The notes beneath the pieces were generated by a model that worked only from the letters and a program-made list of their open reading frames with translations, did not search any database and had not been told where the DNA came from. From the sequence record PQ462667.1: a DNA stretch of 64,000 nucleotides. One strand, given 5' to 3'. Below are positions 5,266-63,003 of this stretch, piece by piece. A program made the translations under genes and the position numbers. Each line of letters opens with the position of its first letter. Position 1 is the stretch's first letter. The DNA is from Escherichia phage HMD-P3.

Positions 5266-5340
5266 TGGCCGAGGTGACAGGATTCGAACCTGCATAAAGG
5301 AATTTAGAAGACTCCTGCCTCTCCCTTAGACTACACCTCG
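5266..5340 (-). tRNA. tRNA-Arg (anticodon TCT)
   Basis: Sense CGAGGTG...GGAGT-CTTCTAA-ATTCC...GCAGGTTCGAATCCTGT-CACCTCG-G-CCA; anticodon loop CUUCUAA. Confidence 0.8.
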
Positions 5341-56112: not shown

Positions 56113-59100
56113 TTAAGAATTTCCTAATGTTTTCAGACTAGCACCGTTCTCATTCAGAGCTAATTCTACTGCGTCTCTCAGAGCACCACTATTACTAGAA
56201 GCAAACTCTCTAAAACTTGCAGCATCCATAGCACTAATATTCAGGATGATAGGTCTTCCTGAAGTTGAGTTAGATGAAGTTTTTAGCTCATCATTAGGTG
56301 TAGATTTCATAGGAACCATAGGGGTAACTACTTCTGTACCATGTTCACCCATTTGATAACTAACCCCAGGGTACATATTACCACCCTCAGCACGAGGAAC
56401 GAAAGAATTAGCACCACCTATACCTTTATCGCCTCTGATATAAGATAATTCACCAGCATTAGCAGACATAGACACATCTATATTCTTCTGACGCTCTCCT
56501 AAGGTTAGGTAACTAGTTGTATTTGCTCCAGAATCCACAGAGGGTATAGAGGATGCACCAGAAGCAGCGGCTAAGGATAGTGCGCCTGCAGCAGCCGCAG
56601 TGGCCATCATCGTTAACCCTAATGGTAAGAACGGACGGGTAGCTGCAGCGTTCATCATAGCTACGGCTGTAGATATGATTATTTGCTTTTTAGCTTCTCG
56701 CTGTTGTATCTTAGTCTTTTCTGCCTCCAACTTCTTGATTTTAGCTTTAGATTCCTCAGACTTACCATCACGCTTCTGTTCTGCTGCAATAGCCTGGTCT
56801 ATTGCACTTATTTGCTGGTTAGCGGAATATGCCATCATCTGTCCCACCATCTGCATACCTGCAGATATGGTTGTTATACTATCCAAGCTATCTTGTGCAT
56901 TAGCCACCACTGCTAAGGAGAAATTACCTATGCTGTTAGCCAATGCTGTAGAAGCAGAATCCACTTCTGACATCTTAGCTATAGCCTGATCATACATAGA
57001 CATTCTATTCTCAAAATCAGCAAACTCCTTATCAGCACCAGATAATCCATAGGTAGGAGTGAAGGTACCCCCTAGTGAGGATACGACTGATTTGTACTTT
57101 TGATCCTCTCTTTGCTTTTTAAGCTGTTCTAAGGCTGCTGAAGTTTTATAAATCTCATTACGATATTTAATTTCTTCTTCAGTATTATCTTTAGACAGCT
57201 CCAGCTGCTGCTGCAGAATAGATAACCTTTCAGTGAGAATCTGTGACTGACCAGTGACATTTCTCTGCGTTTGGCTAACCTCTAAGGCATCCATAAGGGC
57301 GGATACATGAGTAGCAGTAGCTTGCTTTTCTGCTTCCCACTTCTCTCTCTCTAGCTGTGCCTGTGCACGTCTAGATTGTTCCAGTTTAACCTGGCTATCA
57401 GCCTGTTTAGCGTATAGCTTAGTTTTTTTCCCCTCTAACTCTAGTTCAAGATCTAACTGTGCTAGACGATACTGAGTATCAGTCATAGTACGGTTATTTA
57501 AAAGGGCTATTTCTTCGTCAATGCCAAGAATTTTATCTGTTTGATCCTTAACCTTTTTAGCGGTTTCAAATCCTTGAGCTTTAGTGTTGAGAATTTCCGT
57601 TTCTATTTTAGCTACTTGTTTTAATGCTTCAGGATCATTTGGATTTATAGCTAATAGTGTTTTTGCTGCACTAAGCTGTTCCTGTTGTTGACGCAGTAAT
57701 ACTTCCCTAGCTGCTGCCTCTGCCTTAGCCTTGTCCTTAGTCTGAGCGTAAACCTCATCCTTACGTTTAGCTACCTCTAGTGCATTCTGCTCAGTTTTAT
57801 CCATAGCAGTTACATATTCTGCTAGGCCTTTCTGAGCATTCTTAATTTGATCTAGGCTTGTGAAACCTAGATTTAGATCCTTAACTAGAGTATCTGCACT
57901 TTGCCCAGTTATTTTAGAAGTATCTTCTATTGCCTTTACAACACTGTTTAGGTCACTAGAGGCTTTCTTAGCGTTAGTAATACTACTTGCCGCCATTTTT
58001 ATGTTATTTGCAGTATCACTAGAACTTTTCTTCAGGAAGTCAAAGTTCTTCTGTATCTCTGCGGCAGCTTTGAGGTTCTTAGGATCAATTTCGAATACTC
58101 CTTTTTCTCCCGGGATAGCAGTGGCAGCATACTTCATTTTAGCTCCTAACTGCTCAGCCAGATTGCCATTACGTAACAGAGCTTCCCCGGTATCCTGTAC
58201 CGCCTGTCTTAGAACCTTCTCGGTTTTGGCTCGTTCTTCTATTTCTTTGTTTTGACGAGCCAACTCATTAGTAAGCTGTACTACTAACAGATTACTCTCA
58301 TCTGTAGGAAGACCACCAAAAGCAGTCAATGCATTGACAAAAGGAGCAGTAAATGATTGTTTTGCTTTAATATCATCCAATTGCTGTTTAATCTCTTGAG
58401 CTTTCTTAATACGTTCTTCACTTTCTTTAAGATATGTATCTAGGTCTTCTTGAGCCCCTACAGCATTCCCTATTAAAGCTGTAACGTTTTCAGATGGAGT
58501 AATTTTAGCGGATGCACTACGTGCCATTGCAGAAACTCTTGATTGAGAAGCCTTAGTTTGGTATAAGAAAGTATTAAGTGTATCCATAACAGGATTTAAG
58601 TATGTAGCAGCACTTTGTTGTAAACTTCTTAGAGCTGAGTTAGCATTGGCAGCAAATTGTTCCCAAGAGGTTGCCTTAAGAGCATCATCCAGGTATCCAA
58701 ATCTACGAGTAGACTCTGCAATAACCTCATTTGCATATGCTTGTTGTCTCTGGTAGGTAGTCAGGCTATCTACAGTATATTTAATGCCGGTACTAGTAGC
58801 ATTTAACTGTTTAACATAATTTGCATACGCATCGTTAAGACGAATAGTAACACCAAGTTCATCCAGAAGTTCAATTTCTTGTTTTGATACACCCTTAATT
58901 ACACGGTTAAGTGCATCAGTCATATCAACACCAAGAACAGCAGCAGCACGACGTGCTACTAAACCAAACTGCTCCAATTGTTCACTGTCAAATCCATAAG
59001 CGGAAGCAGTAGATGCTTGGCGCATAGCTTCTTCAAAGGATATAGCACCATTAGTAGCGTTTTGTAGTGATAAAGCTAGTGTCTGTACAGGTGTACCTGT

Positions 59101-59775
59101 TATGGTACCAACAATAGTGCCAAACTGCTCTAACCTGTTTAGCTGATCACCTACTTTTAGGTTCTCAAAAGCAGTCTGTAGGACGTATACGTTAGAAGCA
59201 AAGGCTGCGTATAGTATAGGTAGACGACCACCGATCTTAGCCATTGCCGCAAAATCACGAGTAGCTCCGCGTGCTGAACCGGAAGTATTACCTAAAGCTC
59301 TAGAAGCCCTACCAGCAGCACCAGCAGTATCATTAAAACCTCTAGATGTACCACCTAAAGCTCTATTAGTATCGTATAGCCTATCTTGAACTTTCTCTGT
59401 TGCAGCTGCAACATCATTACCCATTGCTTTAACAGATCTAGAGACTCCATTAAACCCAACCTCTAGTTTATCCGCTACTTCGATCATTGCAATAGCTAGA
59501 TCATCTAACTTAACACCAATACTATCAATGGATTTAGTGATACCAGCCATACCCCTACTAGCTTGCATTTTAGTAAGACTTTTTGCTGCTCTATCCGCTG
59601 CCCTCTCAATGGAGTAAAGGGTTTTGGGCATTTTACCTAACTGCTCGTTTGTCAGTTCGGAAGCAGCAGCAGCGTTTTCTAACGCATCAGATACGTTTTC
59701 AATAGACTTTGCAGTACGAGTTGCCCCCTTCTGCTTAACGTCTATTAGTAATTCTCGTATTAGCTTATCAGTCAT
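56113..59775 (-). CDS. tail tape measure protein (T5 pb2-like, 1220 aa)
   Basis: Very long Ala/Gln/Lys/Glu-rich coiled-coil protein with C-terminal hydrophobic and Gly-rich segments; located between the chaperone pair and Dit. Confidence 0.85.
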   Translation of the reverse strand: MTDKLIRELLIDVKQKGATRTAKSIENVSDALENAAAASELTNEQLGKMPKTLYSIERAADRAAKSLTKMQASRGMAGITKSIDSIGVKLDDLAIAMIEVADKLEVGFNGVSRSVKAMGNDVAAATEKVQDRLYDTNRALGGTSRGFNDTAGAAGRASRALGNTSGSARGATRDFAAMAKIGGRLPILYAAFASNVYVLQTAFENLKVGDQLNRLEQFGTIVGTITGTPVQTLALSLQNATNGAISFEEAMRQASTASAYGFDSEQLEQFGLVARRAAAVLGVDMTDALNRVIKGVSKQEIELLDELGVTIRLNDAYANYVKQLNATSTGIKYTVDSLTTYQRQQAYANEVIAESTRRFGYLDDALKATSWEQFAANANSALRSLQQSAATYLNPVMDTLNTFLYQTKASQSRVSAMARSASAKITPSENVTALIGNAVGAQEDLDTYLKESEERIKKAQEIKQQLDDIKAKQSFTAPFVNALTAFGGLPTDESNLLVVQLTNELARQNKEIEERAKTEKVLRQAVQDTGEALLRNGNLAEQLGAKMKYAATAIPGEKGVFEIDPKNLKAAAEIQKNFDFLKKSSSDTANNIKMAASSITNAKKASSDLNSVVKAIEDTSKITGQSADTLVKDLNLGFTSLDQIKNAQKGLAEYVTAMDKTEQNALEVAKRKDEVYAQTKDKAKAEAAAREVLLRQQQEQLSAAKTLLAINPNDPEALKQVAKIETEILNTKAQGFETAKKVKDQTDKILGIDEEIALLNNRTMTDTQYRLAQLDLELELEGKKTKLYAKQADSQVKLEQSRRAQAQLEREKWEAEKQATATHVSALMDALEVSQTQRNVTGQSQILTERLSILQQQLELSKDNTEEEIKYRNEIYKTSAALEQLKKQREDQKYKSVVSSLGGTFTPTYGLSGADKEFADFENRMSMYDQAIAKMSEVDSASTALANSIGNFSLAVVANAQDSLDSITTISAGMQMVGQMMAYSANQQISAIDQAIAAEQKRDGKSEESKAKIKKLEAEKTKIQQREAKKQIIISTAVAMMNAAATRPFLPLGLTMMATAAAAGALSLAAASGASSIPSVDSGANTTSYLTLGERQKNIDVSMSANAGELSYIRGDKGIGGANSFVPRAEGGNMYPGVSYQMGEHGTEVVTPMVPMKSTPNDELKTSSNSTSGRPIILNISAMDAASFREFASSNSGALRDAVELALNENGASLKTLGNS

Positions 59776-59787
59776 ATTTTATTTTTC

Positions 59788-59823
59788 CCAATAAAAAAGG
59801 CTCTGGGCAAATCACCCAGAGCC
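59788..59823 (-). terminator. hairpin terminator/attenuator immediately upstream of the tape measure start
   Basis: Perfect 9-bp stem ggctctggg/cccagagcc, 7-nt loop, followed on the minus strand by TTTTTTATT. Confidence 0.55.
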
Positions 59824-59858
59824 AAGCCTCATCGTGGAACGCCCATTGGAGGAAACTT

Positions 59859-60227
59859 TTACCGTGCTCGAGATCTAGCATGTGGCTTAACGTTAGGAAT
59901 CCTTCCGTTTTGCGGTTTATGCTTCTCAGCACGTTTACGTGCAGCATCTACAGCTTTAGCATCAAATATATTGATAATGTGTAGAACAAATTCTTTTTCT
60001 ATAGGATCAGTAATCCCATAAATATCAAATAAAACACCTAATGCAGCCTTATCCTTACCTATAAAAATAGGAAAGTCACCTGGTATAAAGCAGTCAATTA
60101 GACTGTTATAAATATTCATACTAACAGATACAATAGGCGGAAAATCTTCGAGTTCAACGGGCATAGCCTTAGGATCAGGTTCTATACCCATGGACTCGCA
60201 AAGTATTAAATATTGTTGTTTAGTCAT
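59859..60227 (-). CDS. tail assembly chaperone, downstream ORF (T-like)
   Basis: 122-aa ORF just upstream of the tape measure gene; no obvious SD before its ATG; its frame is open for 29 codons upstream, overlapping the end of the preceding ORF. Confidence 0.45.
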   Translation of the reverse strand: MTKQQYLILCESMGIEPDPKAMPVELEDFPPIVSVSMNIYNSLIDCFIPGDFPIFIGKDKAALGVLFDIYGITDPIEKEFVLHIINIFDAKAVDAARKRAEKHKPQNGRIPNVKPHARSRAR

Positions 60228-60288
60228 TTTAGATGCTGAGCTTTTAATGCACTTATCAGCAAAGTCAGCAACAGCATCTAGGAGTTCT

Positions 60289-60693
60289 TTACGCTTTTGG
60301 GCTACGAAAAGTGTCTAAGTGGAACACTGTCTGGTTGATCCAAGAATCAAACGCAGCAGAGTTCTGCATAAGCATTACAGCATTATCACGACTGAATGGA
60401 ACTTCAGTAGCAGGATCAGCATCTGTTTCAATCAGCATCAGTTTTTCAACGTCACCTACAGTCAAACCAGTCCAACCTTTAATAGCTGCATCAACAAAGG
60501 CTTCAATGAACTTATCATCATCCTGTACCTGAACCAAAGTACCGTTAACCCATTCATCGCGTTTAGCAGAAGAAATAACACGTTTAGAGGTAGCACGAGA
60601 CATATAGTTAAGTTCTAGTTTAAAGTTCGGCATACCTGGGTAGGAAAGAGTAATAGTACGAGTATCAAGAGTAATATCTTTTAAATTAATCAT
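60289..60693 (-). CDS. tail assembly chaperone, upstream ORF (G-like)
   Basis: 134-aa ORF at the conserved chaperone position; ATGA-type overlap with the upstream gene. Confidence 0.45.
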   Translation of the reverse strand: MINLKDITLDTRTITLSYPGMPNFKLELNYMSRATSKRVISSAKRDEWVNGTLVQVQDDDKFIEAFVDAAIKGWTGLTVGDVEKLMLIETDADPATEVPFSRDNAVMLMQNSAAFDSWINQTVFHLDTFRSPKA

Positions 60694-61589
60694 TTTTTAA
60701 TTTCTCCAAAGAAATCTATTCTCACTGGGTCTGAAGAAGCAGTAGGTATAATATCCCACTCAACTCTATACACATCTGAGAACTCTAGGCGTTTTGTAAT
60801 ACGTGCTGAAGGAAAATCTATAGAAATATTATTATTTCTTATCGTTAAAGGTACATCTATCTCCGGTTCTATATTATAAACCATATCTCCTGCAAAACGT
60901 TTTAAGTAGTACAGAGAAATGGTTGCCGAAGCATTCATTTCAGTTACATAGGCTCTTTTATTATTATAAATTTTATTTATATCAAAAACACTCTTATCCT
61001 CTCTCCAGGAGCACTGCTGTTGGAAAGATAAAGAGGCAGAAATAAGACCGGGTAAGATGCTGCCATTAGTAGAAGCTATTACTGGGCTGTAAGACATTAC
61101 TTCACCCTGTATAATAGAAGCTGCTTCTCTATACGTAGATACTTCTGAGAATTTCCCAGACTCAATACCAACATTAAGAATTGGTATATTCTTATCTAAA
61201 GAAAAATCTACCGTAGATACATAGCAGTTTTCAAAATATACACAGTTATTATCTTTATTTACTATATAGATATTGAACATAATAGGTTCAATATTACTAC
61301 TATATAGTGGTAGTAAGAAAGTATTACCTTTTCTATCAAAACCTAACCATTCAAAGAAGTTAGCCTCAGTAAGAGTATTACTGAAATTTACTGCTAGAGA
61401 GATAGAAGAGGGGGTTTGAGCATTTATAATAGAGTCTGCATAGTTAGTTCTACGATGAACAGTCCTACGAAGAGTCTTGAATTCCTCGTAGGAAGTCTGT
61501 ATATCATAGTTTGATAGGGCATCAAAATGAAATGCCCTACCATCATACTCAACTATAACTTTTGACTCTCTCATTAGAGAGTAATACAT
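60690..61589 (-). CDS. tail protein (299 aa)
   Basis: ORF between the major tail tube gene and the chaperone pair; by synteny. Confidence 0.5.
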   Translation of the reverse strand: MYYSLMRESKVIVEYDGRAFHFDALSNYDIQTSYEEFKTLRRTVHRRTNYADSIINAQTPSSISLAVNFSNTLTEANFFEWLGFDRKGNTFLLPLYSSNIEPIMFNIYIVNKDNNCVYFENCYVSTVDFSLDKNIPILNVGIESGKFSEVSTYREAASIIQGEVMSYSPVIASTNGSILPGLISASLSFQQQCSWREDKSVFDINKIYNNKRAYVTEMNASATISLYYLKRFAGDMVYNIEPEIDVPLTIRNNNISIDFPSARITKRLEFSDVYRVEWDIIPTASSDPVRIDFFGEIKK

Positions 61590-61593
61590 TTAA

Positions 61594-63003
61594 TTAGCCA
61601 CCAGAACCGGTAACTGTAATGCTCTTAGTACCTTCTACACCAGAACCGTCTTTAGCTACAGCTTTAACAGTAACTTCTCCAGTCTTAGTAGTGTCCGCAG
61701 TTAATAGACCAGATTCTGGATCAATTGTAGCTGCATCACCACTAGAAATAGACCAAGTTACAGCACTATTAGTAGCATCTGAAGGAGTTACTTCAACAGA
61801 CATTTGTAGAGTATTGCTATTCTCCACTGAAGCTGCATCACCAGCAGATTTAACTGTGATTGATTCAACTAGTTTTGGTGGAGTTTTAGCGCCATCTCCT
61901 GTAGCAATCAGATTAGCCACAGTGGTTTTAGTATACTTGTTAGAGAAACCAAGATAACCCTCATCACCAGTATCCAAATCTGTAGGAATAGCTTTAAACT
62001 CTACTGAAGTACCAAGTACATCATCAGTCTCAATAGTAGGAATGTTAACGTGTGCCTGTTTAGCAACCAACACAGCTGCCGGGCGTTCATCATCATACTC
62101 ACCACCAAGGATAAGTGCAATTTCAAACTTGTTAACTACCTTCAAGGTTTTGATAAGATCTTTATACAGTTCCATAGAACCAAGAGATTTATCATTTAGA
62201 TAGGCAGTTAGTGAACCAGTTAATTCAAATGCACCCGTAAATGAACCAATCGGAATATTTACACGGGACATAATATTCGGGGTTAGGTACGTGATGTTGT
62301 TATTAATGGTGAAAGTACCGCCAGTAATAGGGATATCATATGCCTTATCAGAATCCATATCCTTAATCTTCAGGATAGTCAGTTTGTTCTTAATATAAGA
62401 ACTCTGAATAGTCATATAAGTTTCATCATCAATACCTACAGTATCAGGATCAAATGGTTGCTCATCCAGAGGAATAAGCTGAGTACCATTACCAGACCAA
62501 GTTACACGACCAATATCCTCAATATCAACGTTAACTTCTGCCTGATTAATCTGACAGGAATCGATATAACTCCATGCTTTGTCAGTCAGGATGTAGATAT
62601 GCAGCATTGCCAGCTCGTGGTACGCATTATCTTTAAAGTTAACCATAAAATTGGTTTCGTTATTATGTGCTCCTGTATCACCTTCCAGGTTCAGAGCTTT
62701 ACCACTAGAAAGAGCGTGCCATAACATATAGTCAGGAACAATCTGTTTATTAGTAGTTTTATCTTTGTATGGCAGGATATAAGTAGAGAAACTCCACTCA
62801 GCCGCGTTTAAAGAGTCATTAAAACGTTTAGAACCACGAGTTGGACGCGGACCAGCTTCATTAACAGTAATATCTGTTGAGTTACTGTCCTGACCCCAAG
62901 AAATATCATCCTGAACTAGAATCTCTTGCGTGTTGGTCTTATTATGACCAGTCTTAACCGTAGACACGAAGATTCGAGTATTACGTAATAGTTGTAAAGA
63001 CAT
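61594..63003 (-). CDS. major tail tube protein with C-terminal Ig-like (Big_2-type) domain (T5 pb6-like)
   Basis: 469 aa; C-terminal ~90 aa (ITVKSAGDAASVENSNTLQMSVEVTPSDATNSAVTWS...VTVKAVAKDGSG) resembles a bacterial Ig-like decoration domain. Confidence 0.75.
   Translation of the reverse strand: MSLQLLRNTRIFVSTVKTGHNKTNTQEILVQDDISWGQDSNSTDITVNEAGPRPTRGSKRFNDSLNAAEWSFSTYILPYKDKTTNKQIVPDYMLWHALSSGKALNLEGDTGAHNNETNFMVNFKDNAYHELAMLHIYILTDKAWSYIDSCQINQAEVNVDIEDIGRVTWSGNGTQLIPLDEQPFDPDTVGIDDETYMTIQSSYIKNKLTILKIKDMDSDKAYDIPITGGTFTINNNITYLTPNIMSRVNIPIGSFTGAFELTGSLTAYLNDKSLGSMELYKDLIKTLKVVNKFEIALILGGEYDDERPAAVLVAKQAHVNIPTIETDDVLGTSVEFKAIPTDLDTGDEGYLGFSNKYTKTTVANLIATGDGAKTPPKLVESITVKSAGDAASVENSNTLQMSVEVTPSDATNSAVTWSISSGDAATIDPESGLLTADTTKTGEVTVKAVAKDGSGVEGTKSITVTGSGG

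Follow-up and report, generated by a model that had tools for sequence, protein, structure and literature searches.

The DNA analysed here is a stretch of 64,000 nucleotides (nt) of Escherichia phage HMD-P3 (sequence record PQ462667.1), hereafter called the window. The subject is a pair of small open reading frames (ORFs) on its minus strand, ORF1 and ORF2, which lie between the tail tube gene and the tape measure gene, the position of the G and G-T tail assembly chaperone genes in phages of the lambda type. The gene order on the minus strand is the tail tube gene, a gene for a p140-like protein of 299 amino acids (aa), ORF1, ORF2, a terminator-like hairpin and the tape measure gene, and the order in the T5 RefSeq record is identical. 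Over this region of 1.1 kb, the identity to Tequintavirus (T5-like) phages of Salmonella and E. coli is 97-98%. As described below, the two ORFs are predicted to be connected by a +1 recoding site, UUU_CGN, which is conserved family-wide and unannotated in the tail assembly chaperone genes of T5-like phages. The features that bear on this prediction are as follows.

60289..60693, minus strand: ORF1, 134 aa, homolog of T5.143; putative tail assembly chaperone of the "G" form, the product of standard decoding, with the C-terminus ...HLDTFRSPKA* and the stop codon TAA at 60291-60289.
59859..60227, minus strand: ORF2, 122 aa, homolog of T5.142; putative "T" part, with ATG at 60227 and the stop codon TAA at 59861-59859.
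60292..60314, minus strand: overlap of the two frames, 23 nt or about 8 codons, bounded on the 5′ side by the +1-frame TAG at 60317-60315 and on the 3′ side by the ORF1 stop codon TAA at 60291-60289.
60304..60309, minus strand: proposed +1 shift site UUU_CGU, with TTT (Phe129) at 60309-60307 and CGT (Arg130) at 60306-60304.
60228..60288, minus strand: linker, 61 nt, annotated as intergenic; it appears to code in the +1 frame (KELLDAVADFADKCIKSSASK) and is predicted to be part of the G-T fusion.

The codon starts of ORF2 are 1 nt 3′ of those of ORF1, which places ORF2 in the +1 (equivalently -2) frame. A sequence-only reading of the window had suggested that the two ORFs might be joined by a frameshift, and the geometry that it described was found to be accurate. 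Read directly from the minus strand, the frame of ORF2 is +1; after the TAG at 60317-60315 it stays open over the 29 codons that precede ATG 60227, and it overlaps the last 8 codons of ORF1 over 23 nt (60314-60292), for which the quoted string tagacacttttcgtagCCCAAAAGcgtaaagaac is exact. Because the +1-frame TAG lies upstream and the ORF1 stop codon downstream, the transition from the zero frame to the +1 frame must fall in 60292..60314. The same reading had found no Shine-Dalgarno (SD) sequence for ORF2, and indeed the 25 nt 5′ of ATG 60227 (GTGCATTAAAAGCTCAGCATCTAAA) contain none of GGAG, GAGG and AGGA, unlike the region upstream of ORF1, where GGAG is present. Nor does the T5-like linker contain an ATG, GTG or TTG before 60227. 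A fusion made at TTT_C (60693..60307 joined to 60305..59859) has 277 aa, in line with the roughly 280 aa that had been thought possible. Thus, as expected of the second ORF of a G/G-T pair, ORF2 lies in another frame that is open across the 3′ end of ORF1, has no SD sequence and begins with an ATG that is not conserved. By a hand estimate that takes the base composition into account, a 29-codon open stretch has a chance probability of about 0.14. Taken alone, it is thus within chance; what rises above chance is the conserved frame relation, the motif and the coding signature in the relatives.

Both ORFs belong to families annotated as tail assembly chaperones. ORF1 matches positions 12-139 of the 258 positions of PHROG 313 ("tail assembly chaperone", E=1.7e-33), and ORF2 matches PHROG 3914 (also "tail assembly chaperone", E=1.7e-56) as well as positions 170-258 of PHROG 313. 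That one 258-position profile spans both ORFs was the first hint of a fusion. In the T5 RefSeq record, T5.143 and T5.142 are both named tail assembly chaperone and are given as separate coding sequences (CDSs). From synteny and family annotation, ORF1 and ORF2 are taken to be the G and T parts of a lambda-type chaperone pair. The frameshift of the tail assembly genes of dsDNA phages, including lambda G/G-T, is described as conserved in the works of Levin (1993) and of Xu, Hendrix and Duda (2004), as they are summarised in PMC5009743. As in lambda, the two ORFs lie directly upstream of the tape measure gene, and the 3′ end of the first is overlapped by the second, which is devoid of start signals; the second ORF would likewise be a C-terminal extension produced by low-level recoding, and neither product is expected in virions. 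In contrast to lambda, the shift here would be +1 rather than -1, there is neither an X_XXY_YYZ heptamer leading into ORF2 nor a downstream structure, no curated Pfam TAC family was found to be similar, and the fusion is a predicted one.

A tblastn search of a phage collection with a trial fusion gave 909 matching records. Among the full-length matches listed, all are in two pieces, out to phages of Klebsiella, Erwinia, Proteus, Aeromonas and Vibrio at about 30% identity. A sequencing error as the cause of the frame split was ruled out, since the arrangement is conserved in more than 900 records. Representative records and scans of IMG/VR with two sub-alignments yielded 126 loci, 121 of them usable. 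The loci with a +1 arrangement number 53 and form 12 lineages (groups below about 60% identity, with divergence down to about 30% identity): Tequintavirus, Epseptimavirus, Sugarland, Erwinia KEY, the contig L121, Proteus, four Vibrio groups and two metagenomic groups. In all 53 loci, which represent every cultured Demerecviridae lineage and the two metagenomic ones, ORF2 is in the +1 frame and its frame opens inside the 3′ end of ORF1. The comparison with relatives that the sequence-only reading had called for therefore strongly supports a G protein plus a G-T fusion made by a +1 shift, and the open overlapping frame is kept throughout; the slippery string that it had implied, CCCAAAAG, is polymorphic or absent and fails. 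The conserved element lies nine bases upstream of that string. TTT_CG(T/A), with TTT in the ORF1 frame, is present in the overlap of 53/53 +1 loci from all 12 lineages, and a sister clade with ORF2 in the -1 frame, described below, has A_AAT_TTT in 68/68 usable loci; thus, a conserved shift-prone sequence, as expected of a G/G-T pair, was found in both groups.

The shortest overlaps, of 11 nt, are those of Vibrio phage D28 (L012; TAA ACAACTTTCGT [TAA]) and of L121 (TAG ACTCCTTTCGT [TAA]). Their zero-frame codons are AAC AAC TTT CGT or GAC TCC TTT CGT, in which TTT is the only codon able to re-pair in the +1 frame, as TTC. The Phe codon is TTT in 12/12 +1 lineages, against a phage-wide TTT share of 59% of Phe codons (0.59^12 = 0.002). 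Across 39 unique +1 contexts the A-site codon is CGT in 35 and CGA in 4, the latter among Vibrio lineages, and never another. The two marks of the UUU_CGN class, UUU followed by C and a CGN codon in the A site, are therefore invariant in the +1 lineages. The residue after Phe is invariably Arg in these lineages but Thr in the -1 clade, and the CG therefore goes with the +1 mode and not with the G protein. In the E site, several codons occur (ACT in the window; AAC, ACC, TTG or AAT elsewhere), and the stimulatory UCC was found, as TCC, only in L121.

Two of the loci deserve a separate remark. L121 (IMGVR_UViG_2595698685, a contig of 122,024 bp) carries at about 1801-1814 the full influenza PA-X motif, TCC TTT CGT TAA, which is the most compact version of the site. 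In Aeromonas phage AhSzw-1 (L008; NC_047950.1, 94046-96211), the homologous region is unannotated and devoid of long ORFs on the matching strand; an ORF1-like and an ORF2-like piece do not overlap, and TTTCG is still present. The broken ORFs are likely to result from sequence errors or decay in the record, and this locus was excluded from the comparison.

On this evidence it is likely that ORF1 and ORF2 are joined by a +1 shift at UUU_C into a G-T fusion. Most ribosomes would read ORF1 to its stop codon and produce the 134-aa G form. In a minority of ribosomes, when the P site holds peptidyl-tRNA-Phe on UUU (60309-60307) and CGU (60306-60304) occupies the A site, the tRNA-Phe (anticodon GAA) would slip one base in the 3′ direction, from UUU to UUC (60308-60306). 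C60306 would then be skipped as a codon start, decoding would resume at GUA (60305-60303), and +1 reading through the linker and ORF2 would give the 277-aa G-T fusion with the junction ...HLDTF|VAQKRKELL... The slip itself is inferred, from the observed frame geometry, motif conservation, coding signature of the linker and collinearity with the -1 clade. Its efficiency is probably low, around a per cent or a few per cent, and by analogy a low-efficiency site may suit a G to G-T ratio like that of lambda, which is 30:1 (PMC5009743). ORF2 would probably be made only as the C-terminal part of the fusion and not on its own.

The records themselves suggest another arrangement, that of two independent proteins, in which ORF2 would have its own start, at ATG 60227 or through reinitiation once ORF1 has been terminated, the open frame upstream would be due to chance, and a fusion would not exist. 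The T5 RefSeq record and 12 other annotated GenBank and RefSeq records that were inspected, of the 909 matching, carry two CDSs each, with a fusion annotated in none, and a statement in the Sugarland paper, citing Zivanovic et al. 2014, denies a predicted frameshift signal to both T5 and Sugarland. The ATG of the T5-like phages would also include the conserved core of ORF2, and the 29-codon open stretch is, as said, within chance. However, the linker does not behave as an intergenic sequence. Variable sites were counted by codon position in 30 distinct T5-like sequences. In the 61-nt linker, from the ORF1 stop codon to ATG 60227, the counts at positions 1/2/3 of the +1 frame are 5/1/15 (position 3 versus positions 1 and 2, Fisher p=3e-5), a pattern like that of ORF2 proper (9/3/26); ORF1 has 3/1/11 in its own frame. 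By this substitution pattern, the linker is evolving as a coding sequence of the +1 frame. The peptide that it would encode (for example, ELLDAVADFADK) can be aligned at the protein level across all lineages, as far as the Phe codon. Moreover, ATG 60227, which has no SD sequence, is replaced by a codon for Ile in Sugarland, Val in KEY and Leu or Phe in the Vibrio phages, the T5-like linker offers no earlier start codon, and in the -1 clade, which has a textbook -1 cassette at the same codon, the first Met comes only after the most conserved motif of ORF2. Two independent proteins are thus improbable.

The product of the ORF2 frame, taken from stop to stop, was also used for an exhaustive HMMER search of 1.84 billion representative proteins. 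It gave 147 clusters of ORF2 homologs, all short (67-178 aa) and with variable called starts. A natural in-frame G-T fusion occurs in 0/147 of these clusters, and the split is therefore the rule. In the library of representatives, P0001 is ORF2 at 98% identity. P0006 (1455 aa) and P0134 (554 aa) were rejected as relatives of ORF2, as they are repetitive, have multiple short matches (YGVWNEVEHNFIENHF... repeats) and look spurious.

Where in the overlap would the shift occur? Between TTT and the ORF1 stop codon, both included, lie 21 nt, almost all of them inside the overlap, with a single variable site among the 30 T5-like sequences, CCA/TCA, which is Pro/Ser in the zero frame and synonymous (GCC/GCT) in the +1 frame. 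This is as expected if the stretch is already read in the +1 frame in a functional fusion. The site at which the sequence-only reading had pointed lies just downstream of this codon. There, a tRNA-Lys would slip from AAA (60297-60295) to AAG and give the junction ...FRSPK|RKELL. The re-pairing on AAA_G would be perfect, and the site is inside the overlap, two codons before the stop codon. In addition to the CCA/TCA polymorphism, it is contradicted by Sugarland, which has AAA_C, by KEY, Proteus, Vibrio and L121, which are devoid of the site and whose overlaps end earlier, and by the +1-frame residues directly after Phe, which align across the clades. A shift on this Lys codon is accordingly given very little probability, and UUU_C is preferred. 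The surrounding string CCCAAAAG was rejected as a slippery site: it is CTCAAAAG in T5 and many others and TCAAAAC in Sugarland, where no Lys re-pairing is possible, and the lineages of Erwinia, Proteus and Vibrio do not have it. It has one further property, listed here.

60295..60301, minus strand: CCCAAAA, which is C_CCA_AAA in the ORF1 frame; the string highlighted by the sequence-only reading, outside the conserved signal.

This is the sole X_XXY_YYZ heptamer that could serve a -1 shift, and it is not conserved (CTCAAAA in T5 and many relatives). The -1 frame from C_CCA_AAA meets a stop codon after five further codons (...PKSVKNS*), so that the C-terminal Ala would be replaced by SVKNS. The heptamer is probably without function.

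The sequence-only reading had put the shift as +1 or -2 rather than the common -1. The frame of ORF2 is indeed +1, and re-pairing gives no support to -2. A -2 ribosomal shift, which arithmetically equals +1, or transcriptional slippage of RNA polymerase on the T-run in place of a +1 tRNA slip is hardly credible. The T5-like phages do have a run of four T (CTTTTC), but most lineages have only three (AACTTTCG), and a run of three is far too short for polymerase slippage. In the case of -2, neither tRNA-Phe (CUU, ACU or AAC upstream) nor tRNA-Arg could re-pair. Furthermore, the same motif in influenza was shown to shift +1, and no -2-compatible peptide was detected (PMC3498833).

A clade of relatives uses the opposite direction. 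It was found that 69 marine IMG/VR loci (contigs within L017-L092, such as L025, L017 and L030) have ORF2 in the -1 frame. All 68 that could be analysed have A_AAT_TTT in the overlap (GAA AAT TTT ACN in the ORF1 frame), a canonical X_XXY_YYZ heptamer, and a hairpin begins 4-9 nt downstream of it. In an explicit structure test of the main register, 79% of cells pair, versus 24-40% when the partner is slid; 30 cells have double-sided changes versus 15.9 in shuffles, and 0/500 shuffles reach the observed value. For example, the pair 23-36 is C-G in 15 sequences and A-U in 13. The 5′ arm of the hairpin contains the ORF1 stop codon (CAAGUAG...CUACUUG), as in L025:1807-1861. Sub-families have their arms in different registers, such as GAGCAGAUCGA/UCGGUCUGCUU in L017 and CGCAAGUA/UACUUGCG in L030, and because of these different registers RNAalifold found no single consensus in the -1 clade. 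In most of the -1 loci checked, the next ORF is long and extends beyond the contig end, which agrees with a tape measure gene.

The two clades have homologous G and T proteins and the same synteny, and the recoding would occur at the same Phe codon; they differ in that the -1 clade has A_AAU_UUU plus a hairpin, and ORF2 in the -1 frame. The Phe of A_AAT_TTT is the same residue as the Phe of TTT_CGN, at the end of the ORF1 motif ...DL-x-(N/T)-F. When the inferred +1 fusions (joined at TTT_C) and -1 fusions (joined at A_AAT_TTT) are compared, the alignment is free of gaps through the junction and continues via the linker (...ELLxxLExY.K...) to the motif YLxxCEQLGxEPDP. A neighbour-joining tree nests the -1 clade, which is monophyletic, among the +1 lineages and gives L018 and L028 (both +1) as its sister. 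This nesting suggests that the direction of the shift changed once, with the recoding codon unchanged.

Several observations weigh against a programmed +1 shift at UUU_C. CGT is the commonest Arg codon in the genes of the window (403/818), so a slow A-site codon cannot explain the shift. No SD-like element is present in the 12 nt upstream of the site (CACTTAGACACT), and the +1 lineages have no shared downstream structure, with a z-score of about 0 in the T5-like phages and no consensus from RNAalifold. TTT_CGN occurs in frame 8 times in the genes of the window, that is, 7 times besides the site, versus 13.2 expected; as a sign of shiftiness, this avoidance is not significant. The seven other occurrences indicate that the dicodon alone is tolerated and probably weak. 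A constraint on the C-terminus of the G protein could account for part of the invariance of Phe-Arg. As to the family assignment, Pfam gave no hit for the proteins of the window or their relatives, apart from a sub-threshold match to Phage_TAC_5 in one relative (E=0.01), a profile search of PDB gave one irrelevant weak match only, and the single-sequence AlphaFold (AF2) model of ORF1 has a predicted local distance difference test (pLDDT) score of 34. Finally, independent initiation at ATG 60227 may formally exist as an additional route in the T5-like phages.

The nearest known counterpart of the site is that of influenza A PA-X, in which about 1% of ribosomes shift +1 on UCC_UUU_CGU with a slip on UUU_C (Firth et al. 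2012, PMC3498833). A UUU_CGN class with a preference for CGN in the A site has been predicted to include amalgaviruses, fijiviruses and chronic bee paralysis virus (PMC3498833). The phage site resembles this class in the re-pairing of UUU_C to UUC, the CGN codon in the A site, the lack of a 3′ structure and a probably low efficiency. On the other hand, the class has been described as active in eukaryotes, while the ribosome and host here are bacterial, CGU is abundant rather than rare (CGT is also common in E. coli according to a table in PMC3498833), and the E site is variable (ACU in the window). In bacteria, UUU_Ynn is known as especially prone to +1 shifts (PMC5009743), and YopN-TyeA of Yersinia is a bacterial +1 fusion (PMC4914553). 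These share with the phage site a +1 shift on UUU plus a pyrimidine, no adjacent stop codon and the fusion of two neighbouring ORFs; here, in contrast, the site is kept across a phage family, would be tied to an essential assembly function and has specifically CGN in the A site. As in prfB, encoding release factor 2 (RF2), the P-site tRNA would slip +1 onto a codon with equal or better pairing. The resemblance to prfB ends there, as the A site is CGT rather than a stop codon, no SD-like stimulator lies upstream and there is no autoregulatory logic. I lean slightly towards the view that UUU_CGN is a minimal +1 cassette spanning the kingdoms, of which Demerecviridae would provide the first programmed, essential use in bacteria, independent of a rare codon, an SD-like element and an RNA structure.

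T5 is a model siphophage that has been treated as an exception to the near-universal chaperone frameshift of G/G-T. A literature search, which was not exhaustive, found no description of a chaperone frameshift in the T5 family and no report in which both G and a G-T fusion were detected there, and the PRFect paper reports that no general motif was identified for forward shifts. If the prediction is true, T5 is no longer an exception, and the annotation of the T protein and the "intergenic" linker should be changed to parts of a 277-aa product. UUU_CGN, known from PA-X and other eukaryotic viruses, would work as a programmed signal in bacteria, the abundant A-site codon would bear on the role of CGN, and frameshift predictors would gain a concrete +1 phage motif. 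A further prediction is that tail assembly would be lost if phage engineering or codon optimisation replaced TTT by TTC, or CGT by AGA, at this site. As sisters, the +1 and -1 clades would constitute a natural experiment on the evolution of recoding direction, and the switch between UUU_CGN and A_AAU_UUU plus hairpin at one Phe codon may provide a matched pair for studying the direction of slippage.

The neighbouring features of the window are the following.

61594-63003, minus strand: tail tube gene.
60690-61589, minus strand: p140-like gene, 299 aa.
59799..59823, minus strand: intrinsic-terminator-like hairpin and T-run (T-run to about 59789); context only, outside the recoding signal.
56113..59775, minus strand: tape measure protein gene, pb2 homolog, 1220 aa; the gene next downstream, by which the chaperone position is defined.

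The terminator-like hairpin (59823-59799) is strong, with 11 pairs, 7 of them G-C, and is followed by TTTTTTATT. The records of T5, Sugarland and KEY list an equivalent hairpin as a putative rho-independent terminator. By implication, the chaperone genes and the tape measure protein gene are separated in transcription, or transcription is attenuated between them. No gene for tRNA-Arg(ACG) or tRNA-Phe was found within the 64-kb window; the window has three phage tRNA genes, on the minus strand at 974-1050, 1638-1726 and 5266-5340, for Leu(TAA), Ser(GCT) and Arg(TCT). In T5 (L126; NC_005859, 95777-96529), the 753-nt endonuclease gene T5.141 lies between ORF2 with its terminator and the tape measure gene. 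At this position HMD-P3 has only a spacer of 83 nt (59776-59858 in the window), which indicates that the homing-endonuclease insertion is absent from the window.

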